Positions 4,311-33,624 of a DNA stretch of 37,213 nucleotides are shown piece after piece. The position numbers were made by a program, and so were the translations under genes. Every line of letters begins with the position of its first letter. Position 1 is the stretch's first letter. Below the pieces are notes generated by a model. That model worked only from the letters and a program-made list of their open reading frames with translations. It was not told the origin of the DNA and did no database searches. The DNA is from a virus. Its lineage: Duplodnaviria > Heunggongvirae > Uroviricota > Caudoviricetes. The stretch is from IMG/VR virus record IMGVR_UViG_3300025392_000640, positions 1-37,213 of that record; one strand, 5' to 3'.

Positions 4311-4342
4311 CAAATATACAACTTTTTTATGAAACTACCAAA
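4311..4342 (-). promoter_or_regulatory. Bacteroidota primary-sigma promoter
   Basis: TTTG-N20-TATATTTG on the - strand. Confidence 0.75.
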
Positions 4343-9368: not shown

Positions 9369-9400
9369 CAAATATACGAAATTTATAGGAATTTACCAAA
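9369..9400 (-). promoter_or_regulatory. Bacteroidota primary-sigma promoter for uvsE-thyA
   Basis: TTTG-N20-TATATTTG. Confidence 0.8.
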
Positions 9401-12244: not shown

Positions 12245-12276
12245 CAAATTTACGATTTTATTTTGATTTTACCAAA
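12245..12276 (-). promoter_or_regulatory. Bacteroidota primary-sigma promoter
   Basis: TTTG-N20-TAAATTTG directly upstream of the HD gene. Confidence 0.7.
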
Positions 12277-16479: not shown

Positions 16480-16511
16480 CAAATATACAACAAATATTTG
16501 ATTCTACCAAA
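16480..16511 (-). promoter_or_regulatory. Bacteroidota primary-sigma promoter
   Basis: TTTG-N20-TATATTTG. Confidence 0.7.
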
Positions 16512-18586: not shown

Positions 18587-18618
18587 TTTGGTAATGTGAA
18601 AAAAATTTCGTATATTTG
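18587..18618 (+). promoter_or_regulatory. Bacteroidota primary-sigma promoter for the TonB-dependent receptor (divergent from the helicase promoter)
   Basis: TTTG-N20-TATATTTG on the + strand. Confidence 0.8.
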
Positions 18619-18818: not shown

Positions 18819-21800
18819 ATGAAAAATCTGAAAAAACTATTGTTACTTACGATGATGTTCGCATTATCTTTTGTAGCAAAAGCGCAGGAAACTACATCTG
18901 AAATTCAAGGAAATGTTTTGGCAAGTAAACACGGATTAGCAGGTGCTACAATCACAGCTATCCATTTACCTTCTGGTACGAAGTATGTAACAACATCTCG
19001 TGCTGATGGTAGATATAACTTACCAAACCTTAAAATTGGAGGACCTTATGTAGTAACGGTATCTTATGTGGGATATAAATCCGAAGCACAAAGTGATATC
19101 TCATTAGTATTAGGACAAACTTTTAAAGCAAATTTTGTATTAGATGACAAAGTTACAAATTTAAAAGAAGTGGTTGTAACATCTACCAAACAAGACAAAG
19201 TGATGAACAATGGTAGAACTGGTTCGCAAGACGTATTTAATAGAACACAAATTACAGGATTACCAACTGTATCTCGTTCTTACAAAGATGTATTGAAATT
19301 AGTTCCTACTAACAATAACTTTTCTTTTGGTGGTATGAGTTCACAATTGAATAATATCACAATAGATGGAGCTAACTTTAATAACTCCTTCGGATTAGCA
19401 AGTGATATTGGTGGACAAACGGGAGCACAAGCTATCTCTTTAGACGCTATTGAACAATTGCAAGTAAACACTTCACCTTTCGATGTTAGACAAGGTGGTT
19501 TTGCAGGTGCAGCAGTTAATTCAGTAACTAGAAGTGGTAACAATCAGGGATTTGGTTCAGTTTATCAATACTTTAAAAGTAAAGATTTACAGGGATACAA
19601 TGTTAATGGTGTTGTAGTACCTAAGCAAGATTACAATTATGATTTGAAAGGTTTCACAGTTGGTGGAGCAATAATCAAAAATAAATTGTTCTACTTTGTA
19701 AATGGTGAGCAAGAGAGTAAAACAACTCCGGGTACATTATTTGTAGCTAACGATGCTACTCACACAGCAAATGGTACAACAGTATCTAATGCATCAGCAG
19801 CTCAGTTAGACCAATTGGCTCAATTCTTAAAAGATAAATACGGATATGACCCTGGTCCTTATCAAGGTTATTCTTACAAATCTCAATCTAAGAGATTAAC
19901 AACAAAGATTGATTGGAACATTAACGATGCAAACAAATTTACTTTAAAGTATAATATGTTGCGTTCTTCATCCGATATCCCACCATCTAATAGTGGTTCG
20001 GTTAATAGTTCATATGGTAGAACAGCAGGTCAATACGCAATGCCTTTCTATGGTGCTGGTTATCAAATCTATAACAACGCAGATGTATTTACCGCAGAAT
20101 TGAATACTAAATTCTCTAATTCAATCAGTAACAAATTCCAATTAGGATATACAATGTTGAGAGATTATAGAAATCCTTTGACTTCTAAACCTTTCCCATT
20201 AGTTGATATCTTAGATGGTAACGGACAACCTTTTACATCTTTTGGATATGAGCAATACACTTATGGTAACAAATTGAATACCGATATTTACCAATTGAAT
20301 GATATCCTTTCTATTTACAAAGGAGCACATGAAATTACATTAGGTACTCAATCTTCTTACAAAGAATATAAGAATGGTTTCTCTCCATCTTACGAAGGTG
20401 TTTATCGTTTTAATAGCTTAGCTGATTTTTACGCATCTGTGGCAGGAACTAAAGCAGCAGCTAGATACGATTTATCATACACTTTAGGTAGTGGTGATTT
20501 CCCATTAGTAGGACCAAAAGATTTAGAATTAGGTTTCTTCATTCAGGACAAATATAGAGCAACTGATAAATTAACTCTTACTTATGGTTTAAGAGCTGAT
20601 TACACTAAGTTCTCTAATACATTCCTTTACAATCCAGTAGTAGATACATTAACTCGTTTCTACAATGGTATTCATGCTAACACAGGTGTAGCACCTAACA
20701 CAGCAATTCAATTATCACCAAGAGCTGGTTTCAACTATGATGTATTTGGTGACCAAACATTGCAAGTGAGAGGTGGTACTGGTTTATTCGCAGGCCCTCC
20801 ACCATTTGTTTGGATTTCTAACCAAGCTTCTAATAGTGGTATGGCATTGTTCGGAAGTATTTCTAACGGACAAGGTTATATGTTTAACCCAGACCCTAAC
20901 GCTTATAGACCAACAGCTACTGGTACTTTAAGTAAATCTTACTCAATCAATGTAACTGACCCTAACTATAAATTCCCTCAGGTTTGGAAATCAACTTTAG
21001 CAGTTGATAAGAAATTAGAAGGTGGATTCATCGTAACTGCGGAAGGTACTTATAGTAAGAATATTAACGCTTCAGTATTTGAAAACATCGCTTTACCTTC
21101 AACTGGTTTAATTACCTTATCTGATGGTAGAGTTCGTTTCCCTTATACTTCCGTTTACCCACAACCTGGTATTGTAAACTCAGCTAACAATCCATCAATT
21201 GGTAACGCTATTTATATGACTAACGCAAATGTTGGTTATGTATGGACAGGTACTTTACAAATTCAAAAAGTATCTAAGAACTTAGTAACTACATTAGCTT
21301 ACACTAGACAAGTTGCTAAAGATGCTACAATCAATGGTTCTACTGCATCAACAATGTGGGGAGCTAAGCCGGTTGTAGGTAATTCAAATGATTTCCAAGT
21401 TGGTTATTCTAACAACTATTTACCTCATAGAATCATAGGTTCTGTTGTATATGGTAAAGAATTTGTTAAACATACAAAGACTTCAGTTGGTTTAATCTAC
21501 GAAGCATCTCCTAACAATGTTCAATCTTCATTATCGTACATTTACAATGGTGACTTGAACAATGATGGTTATTCAAATGATTTAATGTTCATCCCTAAAG
21601 ATGCATCTCAAATCAAATTAACTAACGCAGCACCTGTAAGTGGTGTGGCTGATAATAGAACACAAGCTCAATTATGGCAACAATTAGATGCTTTCATTTC
21701 TAACAACCCTTATTTATCTAAACATAGAGGAGAGTTTGCAGAAAGACAAGCATTAGTATTACCTTGGACTCATAGAGTTGATTTAAACTTCACACAAGAT

Positions 21801-22082
21801 GTTTATTTTGTAACTAAAGGAAACAAACATACATTGAGATTTACAGCAGATATCTACAACTTAACAAACTTAATAAGCAACCAATTAGGTGTTTACAAAA
21901 TACCTACAACAACTGCTCCTTTAACTTTTGTTAAATTGGATACTGATGGTAAGACTCCAATCTTCTCATTCCCTTATTTAGATGGTAAGAATCAAGTTCC
22001 TTACACTAACTCATTTAAAGATGATGTAAGTGCTGCATCTCGTTTCCAAATACAATTGGGAGTTAGATATTTATTTAACTAA
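18819..22082 (+). CDS. TonB-dependent outer-membrane receptor (Oar-like, N-terminal carboxypeptidase-regulatory-like domain)
   Basis: Signal peptide, LPNLKIGGPY domain, plug motifs (ITIDGANFNNSFG, DVRQGGFAGAAVNSVTRSG), SPRAGFNYD, C-terminal QLGVRYLFN; 1087 aa, uninterrupted. Confidence 0.93.
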   Translation: MKNLKKLLLLTMMFALSFVAKAQETTSEIQGNVLASKHGLAGATITAIHLPSGTKYVTTSRADGRYNLPNLKIGGPYVVTVSYVGYKSEAQSDISLVLGQTFKANFVLDDKVTNLKEVVVTSTKQDKVMNNGRTGSQDVFNRTQITGLPTVSRSYKDVLKLVPTNNNFSFGGMSSQLNNITIDGANFNNSFGLASDIGGQTGAQAISLDAIEQLQVNTSPFDVRQGGFAGAAVNSVTRSGNNQGFGSVYQYFKSKDLQGYNVNGVVVPKQDYNYDLKGFTVGGAIIKNKLFYFVNGEQESKTTPGTLFVANDATHTANGTTVSNASAAQLDQLAQFLKDKYGYDPGPYQGYSYKSQSKRLTTKIDWNINDANKFTLKYNMLRSSSDIPPSNSGSVNSSYGRTAGQYAMPFYGAGYQIYNNADVFTAELNTKFSNSISNKFQLGYTMLRDYRNPLTSKPFPLVDILDGNGQPFTSFGYEQYTYGNKLNTDIYQLNDILSIYKGAHEITLGTQSSYKEYKNGFSPSYEGVYRFNSLADFYASVAGTKAAARYDLSYTLGSGDFPLVGPKDLELGFFIQDKYRATDKLTLTYGLRADYTKFSNTFLYNPVVDTLTRFYNGIHANTGVAPNTAIQLSPRAGFNYDVFGDQTLQVRGGTGLFAGPPPFVWISNQASNSGMALFGSISNGQGYMFNPDPNAYRPTATGTLSKSYSINVTDPNYKFPQVWKSTLAVDKKLEGGFIVTAEGTYSKNINASVFENIALPSTGLITLSDGRVRFPYTSVYPQPGIVNSANNPSIGNAIYMTNANVGYVWTGTLQIQKVSKNLVTTLAYTRQVAKDATINGSTASTMWGAKPVVGNSNDFQVGYSNNYLPHRIIGSVVYGKEFVKHTKTSVGLIYEASPNNVQSSLSYIYNGDLNNDGYSNDLMFIPKDASQIKLTNAAPVSGVADNRTQAQLWQQLDAFISNNPYLSKHRGEFAERQALVLPWTHRVDLNFTQDVYFVTKGNKHTLRFTADIYNLTNLISNQLGVYKIPTTTAPLTFVKLDTDGKTPIFSFPYLDGKNQVPYTNSFKDDVSAASRFQIQLGVRYLFN

Positions 22083-23133: not shown

Positions 23134-23174
23134 AAAAGAAAAAGGGAAGTGTAATTACTTCCCTTTCTTTTTTT
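23134..23174. terminator. Bidirectional terminator between convergent genes
   Basis: AAAGGGAAGT/ACTTCCCTTT stem flanked by A-rich and T-rich runs. Confidence 0.85.
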
Positions 23175-24943: not shown

Positions 24944-25255
24944 CTATAATGAGTTTAAATAATGTACTAAAGATTCTCCAAATAATTCCATATCTTCTAA
25001 TGTAGCTCTATAAACAATATCTTGTATTATATTACCATTTCCTTTACCATCTTCTACCAATGATATATCGTATATTATTTCATTGAAATCATCATCCATT
25101 TTAGGTTCTCTCATAATAATTAATGTTACACTTTGTCTACTGTTTATATTCCATACTTGCATAGCATAACACTCGTTGAGTTCTTCCATTTTACCAACTT
25201 GCCAATCTCCAAAATATTGGTTTCTAATTTTTTTATAATTCTTTATTACTAACAT
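24944..25255 (-). CDS. MLTIKN-family paralog
   Basis: MLVIKNYKKI...GDWQV...YAMQV...IMR...YDI. Confidence 0.8.
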   Translation of the reverse strand: MLVIKNYKKIRNQYFGDWQVGKMEELNECYAMQVWNINSRQSVTLIIMREPKMDDDFNEIIYDISLVEDGKGNGNIIQDIVYRATLEDMELFGESLVHYLNSL

Positions 25256-25256
25256 A

Positions 25257-25562
25257 TTATTGTCCTACTTCTATATGATGTCTAGTTATCACATCAATTA
25301 TTGCTTCATAAACTGCATTAACATCTTTTAATTCCCTCTTACTTAACCAATAAGATGCCTCACCACATAACATTAAATATTCGTTCCTATGTACATGATT
25401 TGGTTGTGGTGGAGTTACTCTACTTAATGTAATTACATAACTTCCACCAGTAGGTAAATGCGGATAATAGTAATTTATTATGTAATGAGTATCTTCCTCA
25501 ACTATCTTCAATTCACTTCTAAAAGATTTAATAAGTTTGCCCCAATTTTTTATTGTTATCAT
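25257..25562 (-). CDS. MLTIKN-family paralog
   Basis: MITIKNWGKL...YIINY...TLSR...YLM...ELKD. Confidence 0.78.
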   Translation of the reverse strand: MITIKNWGKLIKSFRSELKIVEEDTHYIINYYYPHLPTGGSYVITLSRVTPPQPNHVHRNEYLMLCGEASYWLSKRELKDVNAVYEAIIDVITRHHIEVGQ

Positions 25563-25571
25563 AATTTATAA

Positions 25572-25877
25572 TTAAAAAGGTAATCCATACTCATCATCAA
25601 TAATAGATTCTATTAAATTATAGAACCCACTTTTATTGAAATGGTAAGTAGGTAAATGAACAGATTTTCTCCACTGGCCTTTCATATCTTGAATGAATAC
25701 TTCATGATAACCATCATCACTAACTTCTCTATTTATTAAAACATATACTCTCTTTCCTTCCTTTCTATGTTCAAACTCAAAGGAATAAAATCCTTCATCT
25801 TCCAAAGCATACTTCATATCCCAATTATAGAATACACCAGTATTCATATCACCACCATAATTCTTTATTGTTAGCAT
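25572..25877 (-). CDS. MLTIKN-family paralog
   Basis: MLTIKNY...NWDM...YSFEF...LINR...YHEV. Confidence 0.8.
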   Translation of the reverse strand: MLTIKNYGGDMNTGVFYNWDMKYALEDEGFYSFEFEHRKEGKRVYVLINREVSDDGYHEVFIQDMKGQWRKSVHLPTYHFNKSGFYNLIESIIDDEYGLPF

Positions 25878-26206
25878 TAGAAATATATTTTTCTTATTGA
25901 ATAAAATTGTCCGTTATCTGATGTAAATGTATTTATCAAATAAGTTTCAGCTTCACTCATCGTTTCAAATTTCATTATTTGTTCTGGGTTTACTTTATTT
26001 CCATAATCAACTAATACTGTTTCACTTTGAGTATCTATAACTTCTATTTGAGGTAAGTTTGGATTATAGTTGTAATTTTGATTAATTGTAATTGCATGTT
26101 TAGTTCCTATACTCTTTGTATGATAGTTCCTATCTTTCATCCAACCAATTCCTTTAAGTAACCATTCGTTATTTGAACACTCATATATTGCGTAATATCC
26201 TTTCAT
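25877..26206 (-). CDS. Hypothetical protein (not an array-family member)
   Basis: 109-aa ORF lacking the family N-terminus. Confidence 0.7.
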   Translation of the reverse strand: MKGYYAIYECSNNEWLLKGIGWMKDRNYHTKSIGTKHAITINQNYNYNPNLPQIEVIDTQSETVLVDYGNKVNPEQIMKFETMSEAETYLINTFTSDNGQFYSIRKIYF

Positions 26207-26745
26207 TATTTTGAATTAAGTTTATCCATTTGTTCTTGTAAATCTTTTAATGCTTGTAGTGAAGCCCTTTGTATATTTGTTAAAGGTATTGATACTGAAC
26301 CACTCTTAGGTAACGTACCAATTCCATTTTGAGGTGCTATACTATATGTAACAGCTGTACCTGCATGATGGACTCTACTAATAATTCCTATACTACCACT
26401 ATTAATATTTCTAGTTACGTTCTTTACATAAGATTGTCTTTGTTCTAAAATATCATCAACCAACATTTCATACTCTGCTATAAATTTTTGTAAACTATCA
26501 ATATTAGTTTTTGTTAAATGTGATTTAGCTAATAGGTCTTGAGTTGCATTATCCCTAATACGAAATGCAATTACACCTTTAACTGCGGTTGCTATTAATT
26601 CAATATCCCACTTTGGCATTGTGTGTGTGTTTATGTTTATTATAGTTGCATAATAAACTTCTTCACTTGCATTGTGTATCGGATTAACAATTGAATAACC
26701 TTTGTAAGTCCAACCTGATATTTTATCCCATCCTTTTATTTTCAT
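26206..26745 (-). CDS. MLTIKN-family paralog with C-terminal extension
   Basis: MKIKGWDKISG...GYSI...YYATI, plus about 75 extra residues. Confidence 0.65.
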   Translation of the reverse strand: MKIKGWDKISGWTYKGYSIVNPIHNASEEVYYATIININTHTMPKWDIELIATAVKGVIAFRIRDNATQDLLAKSHLTKTNIDSLQKFIAEYEMLVDDILEQRQSYVKNVTRNINSGSIGIISRVHHAGTAVTYSIAPQNGIGTLPKSGSVSIPLTNIQRASLQALKDLQEQMDKLNSK

Positions 26746-26764
26746 TACGAAATTGTTTTATCAG

Positions 26765-26796
26765 TAAAGGTACGAAATTTTCCGCACTTTACCAAA
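26765..26796 (-). promoter_or_regulatory. Internal primary-sigma promoter within the paralog array
   Basis: TTTG-N20-TACCTTTA, 20 nt upstream of 26745. Confidence 0.7.
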
Positions 26797-26797
26797 T

Positions 26798-27103
26798 TTA
26801 TAAATGTCTCTTAAGTGCCAGCCCAAATGTTTCCATTACATTCTTCCAATCACTAAACCAATCAGCAGATATTTCATGCTGACCACATCTCTGATAATTT
26901 AAACGATAAAACCATTTGTTATCTATCTTATTATAATGTCCAATCTTACTTACTTCAACCCAATGAATTAAAGAAGAAACTTTATCATCATCAAATTGAA
27001 AACGATAATTAGTTTCAGTTTCGTGGACTTGTAGACACTGAAATCTTCCATCCCAAAATTCACAACCAACAATTCTATCTGCGTTTTTTATTTTTAATAT
27101 CAT
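26798..27103 (-). CDS. MLTIKN-family paralog
   Basis: MILKIKNADRIVG...GRFQ...YRFQF...ADWFSD. Confidence 0.78.
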   Translation of the reverse strand: MILKIKNADRIVGCEFWDGRFQCLQVHETETNYRFQFDDDKVSSLIHWVEVSKIGHYNKIDNKWFYRLNYQRCGQHEISADWFSDWKNVMETFGLALKRHL

Positions 27104-27104
27104 C

Positions 27105-27446
27105 TTAGAATGAATTTAATTTTTTATTTAAAACTATTAAAGCCATATTAAACACAATACTTTCTTTTAAATGATTTAACTCCAATGCTTCTTCATATAA
27201 AATATTTGTGTATGAATTATAACATATACTAACCGAATACCTTCCACTTTCGTTTGGATTTCTAGCTATCATAATTGCGGCACTTGCTATCTTAGTACCT
27301 CTGATATCGTGATAGATGGGAGTTAATTTTAGTACATAACAATCAGTATCAATTACTTTATTGAATTGTTCTTTAACTTTTGATACTTTATAAGTACTAC
27401 CAACCATCTTACCTTTAACTAAATCTATATTTGCTATTGTCAACAT
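27105..27446 (-). CDS. MLTIKN-family paralog
   Basis: MLTIANIDLVKG...GSTYKV...YVLKL...MIAR...YSVSI. Confidence 0.8.
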   Translation of the reverse strand: MLTIANIDLVKGKMVGSTYKVSKVKEQFNKVIDTDCYVLKLTPIYHDIRGTKIASAAIMIARNPNESGRYSVSICYNSYTNILYEEALELNHLKESIVFNMALIVLNKKLNSF

Positions 27447-28099
27447 TATACATCAAATTTATCTGGAAATTCATAAACTACTTTATCCAATAGTAATTGT
27501 GGGTCTTTACATACACTAACATCCAAGCGTGCTACTCTACCTTTACAAAATACACTAACTTGGTGAGAGTCCCACATAATATCATAGATACAAAATGTAA
27601 TAGTATGATGTGTACTTCTACTTTCTAAAACACATTCATATCCACTTCCAGTATGCATAGCTTGTACAACAAACCAACTTCTACCCAATACATCTACCTT
27701 AAACCCAGTTATTCTATCCCAATTTTGTATTGTTAGGGGTTTACCTATATGACTAATTGGTGGTGGTACATTTAATGAGGATGTACTAAATGCTTTTGGG
27801 TATGGTTTCATAGCTGTTAATCTTCCATAACTACCAGCGTACGCTATTCTAGCAGCCGGTGGTGGTGCTGATGTTGCAAATAATGGTGATTGTTTAGCTT
27901 TCTTCTTCTCACCAAATAATTGTTTCCATCCCCATCCCATTGGTGTATCATCCCAAAGATGTTTTCTTAGATTTAAGTTTTTAAACCAATCTTCATTGTA
28001 ATTAACTTTTATATATGATACTAACCAATATAGTAAAGCAGCACCACCAATGGTAATTAACAAGAAGAGAGCAAATCCAATTATCGAATCGTATTTCAT
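27446..28099 (-). CDS. TM anchor plus Pro/Ala linker fused to an MLTIKN-family domain
   Basis: N-terminal TM helix; internal PLTIQNWDRITG begins the family domain. Confidence 0.75.
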   Translation of the reverse strand: MKYDSIIGFALFLLITIGGAALLYWLVSYIKVNYNEDWFKNLNLRKHLWDDTPMGWGWKQLFGEKKKAKQSPLFATSAPPPAARIAYAGSYGRLTAMKPYPKAFSTSSLNVPPPISHIGKPLTIQNWDRITGFKVDVLGRSWFVVQAMHTGSGYECVLESRSTHHTITFCIYDIMWDSHQVSVFCKGRVARLDVSVCKDPQLLLDKVVYEFPDKFDV

Positions 28100-28105
28100 T
28101 TTATT

Positions 28106-28438
28106 TTATTTTAAGTTTAACATATAATCAATTAATTGTAATAGGGGAGTGGCACCCAATCTCAAATCCCTAACACTCAACATCCTTCGTATCGGTCTTT
28201 GACGTAATGGGTCTCGTCCATTATCCCACCACCATAACTCATATTCATAATCTCCTTTACCACCGGTAGGCATTCTCTCAATGTTAATTCTATTGAATGC
28301 GTTACCTTCTTTATCAATAATGAAAATGTGATATTGAGTACGGGTTTCTTCAATACCACTTACCCACCAACCTTTAGTATGAGCTCCAATAGGCCCTTTA
28401 CCAATTAATTTTTTATGAAAGTTTTCTATTGTTAGCAT
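28106..28438 (-). CDS. MLTIKN-family paralog
   Basis: MLTIENFHKKLIG...GWWV...YHIFI...NIER...YEL. Confidence 0.82.
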   Translation of the reverse strand: MLTIENFHKKLIGKGPIGAHTKGWWVSGIEETRTQYHIFIIDKEGNAFNRINIERMPTGGKGDYEYELWWWDNGRDPLRQRPIRRMLSVRDLRLGATPLLQLIDYMLNLK

Positions 28439-28439
28439 A

Positions 28440-28799
28440 TTAATAATTTTTCATATTTTCGGTAGCTTCGGTATCCCACCAATGTTTTGATTTAGATAAT
28501 GTTTGGGATATTAGATAAGCCAACGATTCCATACTTTTTAAATCATCGGGTCTAACCAATACCGTAGTTGATATCTTCAATCCCATAACAAATAATTCAT
28601 AACCACCTTTGCTTGAATGTATATTTCTAATCAATCGTACTTCGGTTTCTTTGTTATATCCTTTACCATTTTGAATTGCTTTGAAACGAATTGAATAATA
28701 TGGTTCACTTGTTACGGTTTTGTTTTCAGTTACTAACCATACTTGCCTACCTTGGCACATAACATCTTGTAACTTTAGGATTCCTTTTATTGTTAGCAT
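28440..28799 (-). CDS. MLTIKN-family paralog
   Basis: MLTIKGILKL...YSIRF...RLIR...YELFV...DDLKS. Confidence 0.82.
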   Translation of the reverse strand: MLTIKGILKLQDVMCQGRQVWLVTENKTVTSEPYYSIRFKAIQNGKGYNKETEVRLIRNIHSSKGGYELFVMGLKISTTVLVRPDDLKSMESLAYLISQTLSKSKHWWDTEATENMKNY

Positions 28800-29092
28800 T
28801 TTATTTTTATTGGTTTTCTATGTTTAATAATTAAATCAGCCATATCTTCTAATAGAATAACTTTATCTTTGATTTCATAATCAAGCAGATTAAAGAACTT
28901 TGATGGTGAATATCGTAATTGATACGAACCATGAAGTCCACGCTTCTTCATCAAATCAATTCGGAAATATCTCATATCATCCGTATCTAATACTGCGAAT
29001 GAATATGATTCACTAAAATCTTTTACTGAATGTATTTTATATCTACCATACTCCATTCCTATTATACTATCTATATTTTTTATCACTAACAT
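28793..29092 (-). CDS. MLTIKN-family paralog
   Basis: MLVIKNIDSIIG...GRYKI...YSFAV...YQL...EIKD. Confidence 0.82.
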   Translation of the reverse strand: MLVIKNIDSIIGMEYGRYKIHSVKDFSESYSFAVLDTDDMRYFRIDLMKKRGLHGSYQLRYSPSKFFNLLDYEIKDKVILLEDMADLIIKHRKPIKIKC

Positions 29093-29409
29093 AATTCTTC
29101 TATTATTTTATTAAATACATATCTTACATGTCCTACACTTTTAAATTGTTCGTAACGGACATGATATATGTTACTATATCTTCCATCAACATTTTTACCT
29201 CTTATTATATACTTACCCAATGTGCTTGGGTATCGGGTGATAAGAATACTTAATTTTTCATTAATAAACCCATCACAAAATTTATAAGCATATCCACCAC
29301 CATATCTTCCAGCGTCAATAAAGGCACTTTCTATATGTAATCCATTACGATAAGGCCATTTCATTATAGAATCGGAAGTATCCCAATTTGTTATTGATAA
29401 TAGTTTCAT
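29086..29409 (-). CDS. MLTIKN-family paralog, subfamily B
   Basis: LSITNW...PY...IESAF...ITRY...IIEELC; clearly related to 31786..32124. Confidence 0.75.
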   Translation of the reverse strand: MKLLSITNWDTSDSIMKWPYRNGLHIESAFIDAGRYGGGYAYKFCDGFINEKLSILITRYPSTLGKYIIRGKNVDGRYSNIYHVRYEQFKSVGHVRYVFNKIIEELC

Positions 29410-29744
29410 TATTGTTTGTTATGATATTTTTTAATTATGTATTCCATTTGTCCAATGAAGTTATCCATATCACCCAACCACTCCGAAGAACCACATACAT
29501 TGGTCACCTCTCCATTGTAGTTAAAGAAGTAAGTAATTACATTCCCCTTTCCAACATCATGCGTTACCATACCAATTCGGTTTAATGATATCGTACATCT
29601 ATCTATGGTATTTCCCACCGGTCCCAAACAATGTACATCAAACATATATTTGTTTTGTGTAGGGTGGAGATTAATATTCCTAACTACCCAACCACCAAAT
29701 ATCCTTCTACTACCTATTTTTGTTACACCATTTATTGTTAGCAT
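29409..29744 (-). CDS. MLTIKN-family paralog
   Basis: MLTINGVTKI...GGWVV...YMFDV...SLNR...EWLGDMDNF. Confidence 0.82.
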   Translation of the reverse strand: MLTINGVTKIGSRRIFGGWVVRNINLHPTQNKYMFDVHCLGPVGNTIDRCTISLNRIGMVTHDVGKGNVITYFFNYNGEVTNVCGSSEWLGDMDNFIGQMEYIIKKYHNKQ

Positions 29745-29844
29745 ATATTCAGTTTATCTCCAACTCCACTTCGGGTCGAATTTTTAAATTTTTTATTTTG
29801 TTTTGATTGATAGTTCTAGCCAAGCTCACTCCTCTTTAGGTTAT

Positions 29845-30186
29845 TTATTTAGGCCTTTGTCTTTTATAATATTCCGTATTAATCTTATTAAGTACCATAC
29901 CTAAGAACGCATCCTTCCTTCCGATTTGTTCCTTAATATAATAACCTTTGTGTATTTCGTTATCCCACGACTCATACACTATTTGTACACTATACCAACC
30001 TGCCGTTTCCCCTTCGTTTCTACTTATGAATACGGCGGCTCCATCTCCGATAGCACCACTTCTTAGCGTTATTACATATCTCCCACCCATACCCTGTCTA
30101 AAAAAATCATCAGTAGTAGCTTGATTGATTACCCAATCTCCTACGGTTTCACCTACCAATTTATCAAAGTTTTTTATCACTAACAT
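29845..30186 (-). CDS. MLTIKN-family paralog
   Basis: MLVIKNFDKLVG...GDWVI...YVITL...FISR...YSVQI. Confidence 0.82.
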   Translation of the reverse strand: MLVIKNFDKLVGETVGDWVINQATTDDFFRQGMGGRYVITLRSGAIGDGAAVFISRNEGETAGWYSVQIVYESWDNEIHKGYYIKEQIGRKDAFLGMVLNKINTEYYKRQRPK

Positions 30187-30198
30187 CTTTTATCGTTT

Positions 30199-30525
30199 TT
30201 ATTTTCTTAAATCGTATTCTCTATCTATATACCCCATTAAATGCGTTATGAATACATCTTTATCCATTAGAGCTTGTTTGGTTAATCCACATTCGTATAT
30301 CACATCCGTAAAATCGTTGTAACATATATAGATGTGATATTGTTTGGTTAATAGGTTTATGTTCCTATCTATTAGGATTGCTGCTCCTCTACCATCCCTA
30401 TCGAATGATATAGAATAGTGTTCACAAAGTAGCCATCTTTTTGGATTAGATTCTATAGCCTCTATTACTTCCCACTTACCAAATACCTTATTGTTTAGTT
30501 TCTCTATGTTCTTTATTGTTAGCAT
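30199..30525 (-). CDS. MLTIKN-family paralog
   Basis: MLTIKNIEKL...GKWEV...YSISF...LIDR...YHIYI...DKDVF. Confidence 0.85.
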   Translation of the reverse strand: MLTIKNIEKLNNKVFGKWEVIEAIESNPKRWLLCEHYSISFDRDGRGAAILIDRNINLLTKQYHIYICYNDFTDVIYECGLTKQALMDKDVFITHLMGYIDREYDLRK

Positions 30526-30526
30526 C

Positions 30527-30862
30527 CTATTTGTTTATTTCTTTATAAAGTATATTAGCCATAAAACTTAATAAACCATTTCTCTTACGAAGTGTATCTC
30601 TATCCAATCTATCACTCCATATTATATTATCCGTAGTACCATAGAATAACTTACAGGGATATTTTCCTTCCGGCGATACATCTGCTTCAATAGTTAAAAC
30701 CGCAGGTTGGGCTTTACCAATAGGTTCAGTCTTATTAAATTGGATTTGATAATGTGGGTGCCTTACTAAATCAGAACCATTAACTAAAAAATCGCAATAT
30801 GAAAGTTTAAACTCACCACATAACATTCCATTAAGTTCTCTTATGTTTTCTATCTTTAACAT
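30527..30862 (-). CDS. MLTIKN-family paralog
   Basis: MLKIENIRELNG...GEFKL...YQIQF...YPCKL. Confidence 0.8.
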   Translation of the reverse strand: MLKIENIRELNGMLCGEFKLSYCDFLVNGSDLVRHPHYQIQFNKTEPIGKAQPAVLTIEADVSPEGKYPCKLFYGTTDNIIWSDRLDRDTLRKRNGLLSFMANILYKEINK

Positions 30863-30863
30863 C

Positions 30864-31169
30864 TTACTTTGTTTTTAAATAATTTTCTATTATCCCTTTA
30901 AAGTTTTTCTTATCTCTTAAATAGTCAGCAGTGAATAGGGCACCACTAAATTTATATGCCATTGTATCTTTCCCTCTTACTTTATGGAGTTTACCCACTC
31001 TATACAATGTCATATCTTCGTATTGCCCGTGGCCCTGTCCAACTTGTTTATAAAATTGAAACTTATAGGTATCATCCATAAGCATTTCGGATATGCCTAT
31101 TAGAGTCCATTGGTCTATCACTCCGTACTTTGTGTTTAAAATACTCTTTATGTTTTCTATTGTTAGCAT
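30864..31169 (-). CDS. MLTIKN-family paralog
   Basis: MLTIENIKSI...QWTL...YKFQF...TLYR...DYLRDKKNF. Confidence 0.85.
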   Translation of the reverse strand: MLTIENIKSILNTKYGVIDQWTLIGISEMLMDDTYKFQFYKQVGQGHGQYEDMTLYRVGKLHKVRGKDTMAYKFSGALFTADYLRDKKNFKGIIENYLKTK

Positions 31170-31468
31170 GCTTCTCTCAATTTACTAATGAATATATTCA
31201 TATCTTTTATCTCATCCAACTTCAAATATAAATTGTTTGTATTACTACTCAATCTATAATTCCAATTATCCGTCCAACCTATCGGCTCTCTATGTAAGAA
31301 AATTGTTTTTGAATACTGCTTATTTGTTACATCAATTTGGTATCTATAATTGTGCATATTATATCCCTTTGGGTCCAAATCAAATATATCACATATCCTA
31401 TCTACATAAAAGTTACTACTCCCCAATCGTTTGTATCTTAATCGTTGTATGTTTTGTATTGTTAGCAT
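31163..31468 (-). CDS. MLTIKN-family paralog
   Basis: MLTIQNIQRL...NFYV...YRYQI...FLHR...YRL...EIKDMNIF. Confidence 0.85.
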   Translation of the reverse strand: MLTIQNIQRLRYKRLGSSNFYVDRICDIFDLDPKGYNMHNYRYQIDVTNKQYSKTIFLHREPIGWTDNWNYRLSSNTNNLYLKLDEIKDMNIFISKLREAC

Positions 31469-31474
31469 AATTAA

Positions 31475-31792
31475 CTATAAATTTTCTTTATTAAGTAAGA
31501 TGTATGCTAATTTATTAATCATATTATCTTTATCCACCAACCAATCTGCGGAGGCACTTATATTAGTTCTCATTGAATTGTATATAAAGAAATATGAAAA
31601 GCCAGGCTGTCCAAATATTTTATGACCGGTTCTCTCCAACATAATCTTACATCTTTTGGTAGTAGATTGACGATGATTTGCTAATTCAAATACATAGGTA
31701 TCATTTTGGTTACCTTCATATATTAGTGTAACATCCCACCCATCCCATATCGGTTGGTTTTGTAATTTCAATATGTTCTTAATTGTTAGCAT
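31475..31792 (-). CDS. MLTIKN-family paralog
   Basis: MLTIKNILKL...GWDV...YVFEL...MLER...DWLVDKDNM. Confidence 0.85.
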   Translation of the reverse strand: MLTIKNILKLQNQPIWDGWDVTLIYEGNQNDTYVFELANHRQSTTKRCKIMLERTGHKIFGQPGFSYFFIYNSMRTNISASADWLVDKDNMINKLAYILLNKENL

Positions 31793-32124
31793 AATTCTTT
31801 TATTATTTCTCCAAAATAGTATTTAATCCAATTTACATCCTTTACCGCACTCAATGATAACTTCTTAGGTACAGATGTAACTCCTGTCTTATATGAATAC
31901 CCCCACAATTGATAGTAGTAGTTTCCGTTTTTGGATTTAGTTTTGTAACGATTGATACATATCCTCATTACCTCTTTGTTCTTATCCTTCCAACGAAAAC
32001 GATAATCATATACAGCCATCGTATCAAATGCGGAATGTATATAATAGTTTGATTGGTAGGGGGAATCCATTAAATCACTATGTGTACACCAATTACTAAT
32101 ATTCAATCGTTTTTGTTTTAACAT
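31786..32124 (-). CDS. MLTIKN-family paralog, subfamily B
   Basis: LNISNW...PY...IHSAF...INRY...IIKELC. Confidence 0.75.
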   Translation of the reverse strand: MLKQKRLNISNWCTHSDLMDSPYQSNYYIHSAFDTMAVYDYRFRWKDKNKEVMRICINRYKTKSKNGNYYYQLWGYSYKTGVTSVPKKLSLSAVKDVNWIKYYFGEIIKELC

Positions 32125-32125
32125 A

Positions 32126-32365
32126 CTATAATGTAGGGTTTAATAAAGAAACAATTGAATGAACGATACTATCACCCTTAGTAGGTTTTGAAAAATCATA
32201 TTGGTTATTCAAATCGTTAGCTCGAATGATACCAGTCCTATCTTCGTAAGACTGGGATACATTCAACTCCTTAGCCCAATTCTGAAACTTAGGGTCGTTC
32301 ATTGTGTTTGCTCTATCCAATTCTAATTGTTCGTACTTTTGTAAATCTAAATTTTGTAAATTCAT
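32126..32365 (-). CDS. Hypothetical protein (not an array-family member)
   Basis: 79-aa ORF. Confidence 0.7.
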   Translation of the reverse strand: MNLQNLDLQKYEQLELDRANTMNDPKFQNWAKELNVSQSYEDRTGIIRANDLNNQYDFSKPTKGDSIVHSIVSLLNPTL

Positions 32366-32386
32366 AACTTATTGTTTTTATTTTTA

Positions 32387-32746
32387 TTATTTAAATGTTA
32401 TCTTACATCCATCGTGTCCACTAAAATCTCCGTTATCCGCTAACCTCAATATCCCATTAAGGAAATGTGAGAACTTAGTAGGAGAACTCATATCCGCTTT
32501 CCATATACTCATAGGATACGATTTGTTTTTATCCATATCCCATAACCATACTAAAAAGTTATCCGCATCACTATCTTTCAGTATAGCCAATTTATAATGT
32601 CTATTCGCTCTATTACCAATATCAGATATAGAATCAACTCCTATTACATACTTATCATCCATATCGGTACAATACTTAATGTTAAAGCGTTCAGATTCCA
32701 TATCCATAACCGCCTTAGTAAAGTTCTTAATGTTTAATCGTTTCAT
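32387..32746 (-). CDS. MLTIKN-family paralog (divergent)
   Basis: RLNIKNFTK...RFNI...YVIGV...DMSSPTKF. Confidence 0.65.
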   Translation of the reverse strand: MKRLNIKNFTKAVMDMESERFNIKYCTDMDDKYVIGVDSISDIGNRANRHYKLAILKDSDADNFLVWLWDMDKNKSYPMSIWKADMSSPTKFSHFLNGILRLADNGDFSGHDGCKITFK

Positions 32747-32747
32747 A

Positions 32748-33068
32748 TTACTTTGTATTTAATTGGGGTTTATACTTCTTAATCAATTCCATCTCTCTTT
32801 TGTGTACTTCCTCTTTACCTCTTACCACATCTAACACCGATATGTCGTAAACAATTTCTAAATCATCAATATACTTACTCATATCCTTATACAATGCCCA
32901 ATCCCAAGCTTCCTTTCGAGCTCTACTAAAGTGTTTTTGTAAACGAACCTTAACACTCTTTCGGAAAGCCCTACCAATAGATGCGGTAATACCAATATAC
33001 TCCTTTCCATTTTTGGTATTCGTAATAAGGTATATAATGTGATTCCTATCGCTTCTCTTTTTTCTCAT
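32748..33068 (-). CDS. Stand-alone GIY-YIG nuclease domain protein
   Basis: IIYLITNTKNGKEYIGIT, R...H, E (KREMELI) and terminal N (PQLN) of the GIY-YIG core. Confidence 0.85.
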   Translation of the reverse strand: MRKKRSDRNHIIYLITNTKNGKEYIGITASIGRAFRKSVKVRLQKHFSRARKEAWDWALYKDMSKYIDDLEIVYDISVLDVVRGKEEVHKREMELIKKYKPQLNTK

Positions 33069-33592: not shown

Positions 33593-33624
33593 CAAAGATA
33601 CAACAATAGCTCGAAATACCCAAA
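33593..33624 (-). promoter_or_regulatory. Primary-sigma promoter heading the paralog-array operon
   Basis: TTTG-N20-TATCTTTG. Confidence 0.8.

Follow-up and report, generated by a model that had tools for sequence, protein, structure and literature searches.

Small minus-strand genes in tandem make up one of the two cassette arrays that a phage devotes to an undescribed multigene family

What is a phage doing with a dense run of small genes that resemble one another only faintly, are they truly one family, and what has made them so different? The question is raised by the window analysed here, a stretch of 37,213 nucleotides that forms bases 1-37213 of contig G000 (101,213 bp; IMG/VR record IMGVR_UViG_3300025392_000640, Caudoviricetes). 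In this window, 22 tightly packed open reading frames (ORFs), all on the minus strand, occupy positions 24944-32746, where a preliminary description of the sequence had placed them. Twenty of the 22 belong to one protein family, the exceptions being 25877-26206 and 32126-32365, which is real, large, and undescribed, and the phage carries it as a multigene family in two cassette arrays, of which this block is one. A second array lies on the same contig at 42687-47676, together with two single copies at 60029-60337 and 91859-92461; at least 37 copies are present on the 101-kb contig, and the family occupies more than 10% of it. The second array, the two single copies, a start box at the nucleotide level, and the cassette exchange generating diversity are all additions to the preliminary description.

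Pairwise searches connect few of the block's ORFs, so the family must be very divergent, and membership was established with profiles. A jackhmmer search seeded with 30199-30525 against all ORFs of at least 50 residues on G000 converged at 34 proteins, 17 of them within the block. A leave-one-out test took out each member in turn, built the hidden Markov model (HMM) anew, and searched the database with reversed and shuffled sequences added as decoys; it recovered 32 of the 34 members at E<1e-3, with the best decoys at 0.03-0.4. Three extra ORFs join the family: 27446-28099 and 31786-32124 were picked up by leave-one-out HMMs (E about 1e-5), and 29086-29409 was joined via 31786-32124 (phmmer 2e-9). 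For these three, profile-profile alignment with hhalign, which is independent of inclusion, gave E values of 5e-8 to 7e-8 at 95% probability. The weakest members are 26206-26745 and 32387-32746 (hhalign E 4e-5 to 5e-5, probability 68-69%), and the two exceptions score 0.5-0.6% against the family profile, the same as unrelated controls. After the first 12 residues had been removed, 21 of the 34 members were still found at E<1e-3 and 29 of the 34 at E<=0.03; the similarity thus spans the whole domain, and a likeness confined to the N-terminus is ruled out. The leave-one-out HMMs, the hhalign results, and two AlphaFold models together confirm the proposed family of 20.

The AlphaFold2 model of the 30199-30525 protein, built on an alignment of 33 paralogs, reaches a predicted local distance difference test (pLDDT) score of 92.5 and a predicted template modelling score (pTM) of 0.83. 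It contains a short helix (residues 7-10), five antiparallel strands, a helical turn, and a long C-terminal helix (residues 89-107). The divergent 179-residue member 26206-26745 adopts the family topology over residues 1-115 (pLDDT 85-95 over 11-110), followed by a disordered linker and a C-terminal helix. The same topology in both models bears out the single small alpha/beta scaffold that had been proposed, and the downstream motifs said to be common to the members prove to be real alignment columns: W18/V20, the invariant Y37 with I39/F41, L52/R54, G61/Y63, and F92/L96/L100 of the helix. The conserved columns, which also include I50 and L65, alternate along the strands and line up with helix residues F92/L96/L100 and with N-terminal L2/I4/N6. 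Insertions gather in the loops that follow positions 16, 32, 42, 56, and 62, and the concentration of insertions and deletions there matches the loop variability reported earlier. Judged from strand periodicity, the conserved residues would make up the helix-covered face of the sheet and the N-terminal cap, and the open face and loops would vary. The isoelectric points (pI) of the members run from 4.5 to 10.2 and, with the conservation columns, support the claim of a conserved core with a diversified surface. A uniformly acidic DNA-mimic family is ruled out by this pI range. A secreted family is likewise ruled out, as signal peptides are lacking and the sole hydrophobic segment is the anchor of 27446-28099, whose flanking charges suggest a cytoplasmic domain. 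Some members are fused to CxxC modules or to helical, coiled-coil-like tails; an N-terminal CxxC module of ~40 residues (MKE..C.YCGK...), without a Pfam match and placed before the family domain, is common to G000 91859-92461 and L028 13058-13669.

The conserved N-terminus bears on two rival accounts. In the first, it would be a capsid-targeting leader, and the products would be packaged in the virion and injected with the DNA, as in the case of the T4 internal proteins. A strongly conserved N-terminus of ~10 residues on otherwise fast-evolving small proteins speaks for this, and the T-even internal proteins form a diverse anti-restriction set with only the capsid targeting sequence in common (PMC3012670). 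The bodies here are homologous, however, not unrelated; the model places the N-terminal segment within the fold with high confidence; position 5 may hold K, E, or Q, which leaves no fixed protease site; 37 packaged species seem unlikely; and the genes stand behind host-type promoters beside replication genes, not in the head module. Because the bodies are homologous and the N-terminus lies within the fold, packaging is the least likely of the rivals and highly improbable. In the second account, the members would be adaptors whose conserved face (the MLTIKN segment, Y37, R54, and Y63) docks all of them on one phage or host hub, such as a protease, a polymerase, or a membrane complex, and whose variable surface recruits different substrates, as do the F-box and BTB families of large eukaryotic viruses. 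The most conserved residues do include the polar or aromatic N6, Y37, R54, and Y63 and not just the hydrophobic core; the N-terminus is far more conserved than the rest, leave-one-out scores falling without it; and the anchor and tail fusions are consistent with tethering. The same strand periodicity, however, would put these four residues on the hydrophobic-core face, where they may just cap the fold, and no hub candidate was identified. The adaptor account is regarded as unlikely.

Searches for known relatives returned no characterised domain from Pfam, PHROGs, PADLOC, the PDB, or Foldseek, in line with the earlier failure to recognise the family. None of 33 members matched a Pfam model at E<=0.01, including the TriTu immunity model PF24689; the Pfam, PHROGs, and PADLOC scans of members gave sub-threshold noise only; no PDB sequence matched the family profile below E 0.4; and Foldseek found nothing at E<=1e-3 in the PDB, BFVD, AFDB clusters, or Swiss-Prot. 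With VIA-align, whose background reaches Z 7-8, the best match is DR_1245 (4h5b_B; Z 6.6 over 90 residues, 3.0 A, 12% identity), followed, still in the background range, by type III secretion chaperones, RWD/UEV domains, the N-terminal domain of AcrIF24, and the TriTu immunity protein at Z 5-6; several type III secretion chaperones score 4.6-5.2. An ESM Atlas feature search found unnamed viral clusters only, at 0.81, which falls short of the lead threshold. The array had no megablast hit among GenBank phages, and the N-terminal peptide strings do not occur in the searchable literature. A profile search of 1.84 billion representatives, by comparison, yielded 621 clusters (50% identity) at E<=1e-3, nearly all of 90-115 residues and matched end to end, and every named match in the cluster look-ups was a 'hypothetical protein'. 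These matches lie mostly on short metagenome contigs, and the family is also found on a 274-kb jumbo phage. The flanking 241-residue protein had no relative in the metagenome scan. Two contigs of the European Nucleotide Archive (ENA), L036 and L037, carry eight members in 16 kb on another phage background (2OG-Fe(II) oxygenase, NlpC/P60, DUF2452); some have the same start box, and they are interspersed with unrelated small genes.

A further rival is that the array is a protective 'immunity' repertoire against incoming toxins or competing phages (by superinfection exclusion or by immunity to contact-dependent or phage-borne toxins), like the consolidated orphan-immunity arrays of Bacteroidales. 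Such a role would fit the arrangement seen here, in which genes for small, divergent, cytoplasmic alpha+beta proteins follow one another on a Bacteroidota-type element; the TriTu immunity protein (7zhm_D) gives a weak likeness (Z 5.0; template modelling (TM) score 0.52/0.57 to an Atlas cluster); and Bacteroidales have documented immunity-gene arrays whose repeats are integron-like (rAID-1; bioRxiv 10.1101/471110). The TriTu likeness is at background level, however, and no Pfam immunity family is matched in sequence; moreover, rAID arrays combine many unrelated families with a tyrosine recombinase, whereas one family is present here, with no recombinase among the neighbours scanned. A protective repertoire is considered quite unlikely.

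At the nucleotide level, most members open with ATG CTA ACA ATA RAR AAY ATA, the first 12-21 bases being conserved even at synonymous sites. The 12-mer ATGCTAACAATA, with at most one mismatch, occurs nine times in the window against 0.63 expected, and all nine stand at member starts. Within this start box, Leu 2 is encoded by CTA in 17 of 26 cases (genome-wide share 8%; P 7e-13), Thr 3 by ACA in 20 of 20 (43%; P 5e-8), and Ile 4 by ATA in 26 of 27 (38%; P 2e-10). Identical box codons are found in seven other phage contigs, even though identity between the protein bodies stays below 35% there. The box is part of the coding sequence and contains neither promoter nor hairpin. At four junctions (28793-28799, 29086-29092, 31163-31169, and 31786-31792), adjacent genes overlap by seven bases, the upstream ORF ending in Cys-stop inside the ATGCTAA (as TGC TAA) or ATGTTAG of the next gene. 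Several members end in Cys because of this overlap with the following start box, and the overlaps suggest translational coupling. Elsewhere, a 66-residue non-member at L008 10347-10547 starts MLTIKS..., and its homolog in L009 starts MQVKES...; here an unrelated gene may have acquired the box.

Comparison with related phages shows that the array content is not invariant: whole genes are gained, lost, and reordered. Against L007, where the flanking proteins are about 90% identical and four covered array genes 59-66%, the window differs by a precise 336-nt one-gene indel that corresponds to the non-member 25877-26206 (window 26213-25878 has no counterpart there); a 69-residue version of this gene is present in L031. 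The window, L031, and L033 have common flanking genes. The downstream half of the array, which begins with the homolog of 28440-28799 and ends with that of 24944-25255, keeps synteny with the window in both L031 and L033, except that 27105-27446 is lost, 25877-26206 is shortened or absent, and a 505-residue gene is gained in L033. The upstream half is permuted among the three, with gains and losses. In L033, the homolog of 30199-30525 and its neighbour precede the homolog of 32387-32746; in L031, the homologs of 29409-29744 and 28440-28799 are separated by five genes, none of which L033 has at this place. Between L033 and L031, successive collinear blocks overlap on start boxes (L033 5743-5755 and 6079-6111), which is the trace expected of box-to-box recombination. 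G003 and G005, which are more closely related, differ by an insertion of two genes with a box at either end and by another of a single gene, which falls exactly between its neighbours. As for the boxes, the data show breakpoints falling there, no more. The positionally homologous array holds 20 members here, about 17 in L031, at least 12 in L033 (a cut contig), and 10 in G005; family matches per record number 17-22 in G003, G005, and G006. Two short metagenome contigs have yet another gene order. The reading frames are intact in all copies seen.

How old is this variety? The highest identity between paralogs within the genome is 36%, and many members have orthologs of 45-81% in other phages; the repertoire is therefore old and maintained and not the product of a recent amplification. 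The preliminary description invoked a lineage-specific expansion, which is misleading on these figures. A recent-duplication 'accordion' is ruled out by the low in-genome identity (<=36%). The ratio of nonsynonymous to synonymous substitution (omega) is 0-0.5 for ortholog pairs, apart from one pair at 1.2, and 0.02-0.2 for flanking genes; the members are under purifying selection that is relaxed relative to the flanking genes. One genome pair has identical members alongside others at 70-86% identity, and the divergent ones also have raised synonymous divergence (dS), which points to replacement by divergent alleles and not to faster mutation alone. Subfamilies are kept across phages whose core proteins are only 78-80% identical.

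These observations also bear on the proposal of largely neutral or selfish cassette churn, in which the box eases copying and moving and the family persists by spreading, with little benefit to the phage. Copy number has a two-fold range between close relatives, omega exceeds that of the flanking genes (0.2-0.5 against 0.04-0.2), unrelated cassettes ride along (25877-26206; the 505-residue gene in L033), and the paper on promoter early stem-loop (PeSL) elements reads the hyperplastic regions of T4 similarly (PMC2839356). Set against this, frames are intact throughout, nearly every ortholog pair shows purifying selection, the subfamilies are retained across the phages just mentioned, and more than 10% of the contig would be a heavy load for a packaged genome if useless. 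Churn by itself is judged very unlikely.

Transcription signals place the array in a larger unit. The pattern TTTG-N18-21-TAnnTTTG, which we take to be the Bacteroidota -33/-7 consensus, occurs 10 times in the window against 1.8 expected, mostly ahead of genes. The extended consensus TTTGGTA-N17-CGTAtATTTG is found at 4311-4342, 9369-9400, 12245-12276, 16480-16511, 18587-18618, and 33593-33624. Both host-type promoters reported for the block are present: the one at 33593-33624 (minus strand; TTTG-N20-TAtcTTTG), a candidate head of the leftward unit, is an exact match to TTTG-N20-TAnnTTTG, and the internal one at 26765-26796 (minus strand; TTTG-N20-TAccTTTA), read from the sequence and kept in L007, is a near match ending in TTTA. 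No terminator hairpin was found within the array by the hairpin scan; the sole intrinsic-terminator-like hairpin downstream, at 23139-23168 on the minus strand, is the likely end of the transcription unit. With two promoter-like sites for about 25 genes, these signals suggest one long leftward unit with an internal booster. The early expression proposed in the preliminary description is an inference from the promoter type, which also precedes the replication genes.

The host is probably a member of the Bacteroidota. The nearest helicases are those of Bacteroides, Cellulophaga, and gut phages, and the window encodes at 18819-22082 (plus strand) a 1087-residue SusC-like, TonB-dependent-receptor-like outer-membrane protein (CarboxypepD_reg, Plug, and beta-barrel), which has its own Bacteroidota-type promoter at 18587-18618, is 82% identical in L007, and is syntenic in L031. 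The helicase and PhoH of G000 are 78% and 80% identical to those of G005, a 273,997-bp IMG/VR record rated complete by CheckV, where they occur in the same order, and the synteny extends to both arrays; at 101 kb, G000 probably covers about one third of a jumbo phage genome of ~270 kb. Scans with Pfam and PHROGs, which covered the window's larger genes and the array flanks only, found GIY-YIG, helicase, PhoH, and other genes and no integrase.

The evolutionary and structural picture, that is, one scaffold, old subfamilies, and exchange at a box embedded in the coding sequence, is well supported. As to mechanism, each gene would encode a cytoplasmic alpha/beta domain of ~100 residues, one copy being membrane-anchored, in which the N-terminal segment, one face of the five-stranded sheet, and the C-terminal helix form the core and the loops, and probably the open face, are hypervariable. 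Recombination between start boxes would delete, insert, and reorder whole genes, giving each phage a different repertoire drawn from old subfamilies. Transcribed leftward from the host-type promoter, the array would come first in a long unit, with further small genes behind it up to the terminator-like hairpin. Its products may be binding proteins, each specific for its own target among host factors and serving counter-defence or host takeover, much like the library of binders in the preliminary description; this repertoire would be reshuffled as hosts change.

This combination of cassette arrays exchanged at the box and products that bind host targets is the explanation favoured as best, and is held tentatively, at somewhat less than even confidence. 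A binder repertoire is preferred by analogy, because a hypervariable surface is set on a fixed core; because the domain is fused to anchors and tails, which fits a portable binding domain; because the genes are accessory, fast-turning, and placed behind host-type promoters; and because the weak fold neighbours are protein-binding modules. Several points weigh against it. At the whole-gene level no arms-race signature was detected, omega being below 1 in all but one pair. All fold matches have Z under 8, so that 'binding module' is an impression and not a result. The replication genes carry the same promoter type, and early timing is therefore not established. The conservation of the box could serve translation initiation in a host without Shine-Dalgarno sequences, with recombination as a by-product. 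Finally, a common active or ligand site could be what the invariant polar positions (N6, Y37, R54, and Y63) reflect, which would imply a shared activity and not many targets. A bolder version of the binder repertoire, considered rather unlikely, is a recombinase-free, integron-like system of jumbo phages in which the 21-base box is at once translation start, structural N-terminus, and recombination site; phage populations would assemble combinatorial counter-defence libraries from hundreds of subfamilies, each member neutralising another host defence or factor.

The individual genes are described here in leftward order, all on the minus strand; members were recognised by leave-one-out HMMs unless other evidence is given. 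A GIY-YIG (SegE-like) homing-endonuclease gene (32748-33068; Pfam PF01541, E 2e-6) adjoins the first array gene; it has a counterpart in L033 and G005 and is absent in L031. A mobile nuclease making double-strand breaks stands, in other words, at the array border. The first array gene, 32387-32746, encodes a divergent 119-residue member starting MKRLNIKNF (leave-one-out E 7e-5; hhalign E 5e-5) and is followed by the 79-residue non-member 32126-32365 (hhalign probability 0.6%). Homologs of these two stay paired in both L031 and L033, also where they occupy another place in the array, and the homolog of 32126-32365 opens the homologous array in G005. Next come 31786-32124, a divergent 112-residue member of the ISNW subfamily (leave-one-out E about 1e-5; hhalign E 5e-8), from which jackhmmer reaches the canonical second-array member 43557-43889; 31475-31792 (105 residues; orthologs 56-73%); 31163-31468 (101 residues, exact start box, Cys end by box overlap; 61% ortholog in G006); and 30864-31169 (101 residues, exact start box, also found by the box search).

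The array continues with 30527-30862 (111 residues), the modelled 108-residue member 30199-30525 (AlphaFold pLDDT 92.5; orthologs 75-81%), and 29845-30186 (113 residues). The latter borders the sole sizeable gap within the array (29745-29844, 100 nt), which holds no promoter-pattern match. Beyond the gap lie 29409-29744 (111 residues, exact start box; orthologs 74-75%); 29086-29409, a divergent 107-residue member of the ISNW/ITNW subfamily (phmmer 2e-9 to 31786-32124; subfamily hhalign E 5e-8 against the core family); 28793-29092 (99 residues), whose C-terminal Cys is followed by a stop formed by the TAA within the next gene's ATGCTAA; and 28440-28799 and 28106-28438 (119 and 110 residues), both with the exact start box and both also found by the box search. 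The membrane-anchored 217-residue member 27446-28099 (hhalign E 7e-8, probability 95%; orthologs 56-61%) consists of an N-terminal transmembrane helix, a Pro-rich linker, and the family domain at residues 122-207.

Further downstream are 27105-27446 (113 residues), without an ortholog in L031 or L033, and 26798-27103 (101 residues, MILKIKN; leave-one-out E 3e-9; orthologs 52-59% in L031, L033, and G005), after which the internal promoter-like site precedes the divergent 179-residue member 26206-26745 (hhalign E 4e-5; AlphaFold family topology). The non-member cassette 25877-26206 (109 residues; hhalign probability 0.5%) is set between two members with TAATG overlaps. The last three genes are 25572-25877 (101 residues, exact start box; orthologs 66-69%), 25257-25562 (101 residues, MITIKN; leave-one-out E 2e-5; orthologs 63-70%), and 24944-25255 (103 residues, MLVIKN), the last array gene, which was found by jackhmmer and at leave-one-out E 6e-10 and has orthologs of 58-59% in L007 and L031.

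Whatever the function of its products, the start box shows how a phage can keep a gene family modular, the same 21 bases being both structural N-terminus and exchange homology. The family has no Pfam or PHROGs entry, and defining it would annotate many 'hypothetical' phage genes. If the members are target-specific binders, few phages would be known with so large a repertoire from a single family (at least 37 copies), and new inhibitors of defence or housekeeping proteins of Bacteroidota could readily be drawn from it.

Compared with known systems, the scaffold is like the type III chaperone/YbjN-like and RWD/UEV folds (DR_1245, 4h5b; ExsC, 3kxy; Spc24/25, 3vza) in its short N-terminal helix, antiparallel sheet, and long C-terminal helix on one face. 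Those are small protein-binding modules; here there is no sequence signal, and the best Z of 6.6 is within the range of unrelated models. Large DNA viruses also carry multigene families, such as MGF110/360/505 of African swine fever virus (ASFV), the poxvirus host-range families, and the 'genomic accordions'. These resemble the present array in their tandem paralogs, in a copy number that differs between related viruses, and in being thought to act on the host; accordions, however, consist of recent near-identical duplicates, whereas identity here is at most 36% and the subfamilies are common to several bacteriophages. In the case of the T4 internal proteins, which are polymorphic small proteins with a capsid targeting sequence and include at least one anti-restriction factor (PMC3012670), a conserved N-terminus of ~10 residues is likewise carried by polymorphic small proteins, but only the leader is common there, whereas the whole fold is common here, the N-terminus apparently lies within it, and nothing points to packaging. 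The rAID-1 arrays of Bacteroidales, located on bacterial mobile elements, have a XerD-like recombinase, intergenic repeats, and many unrelated immunity families (bioRxiv 10.1101/471110). Long co-oriented arrays of small genes, repeated junction sequences that suggest active cassette acquisition, and a setting in Bacteroidota (a probable one for the phage) are alike in both; in contrast, the box here is intragenic, one family is involved, no recombinase was found among the neighbours scanned, and the genome is of the lytic-phage type.

The PeSL shuffling of T4-type hyperplastic regions (Arbiol et al. 2010, PMC2839356; Comeau et al. 2014, PMC4122927) is alike in that short repeated DNA motifs flank small accessory genes and that indels or replacements between close relatives break at these motifs. 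Both features are found here, with the repeated motif at gene borders (9 against 0.63 expected) and breakpoints on the motif in L033/L031, L007, and G003/G005. However, a PeSL is an intergenic sigma-70 early promoter with a terminator stem-loop that flanks unrelated ORFans, whereas the repeat in the present array is the first 12-21 coding bases and the cassettes are mostly homologs of one family. With the start box, the PeSL idea, so far one of regulatory cassettes between genes, reaches into coding sequence, and the array varies the known theme of hyperplastic regions and viral multigene families.

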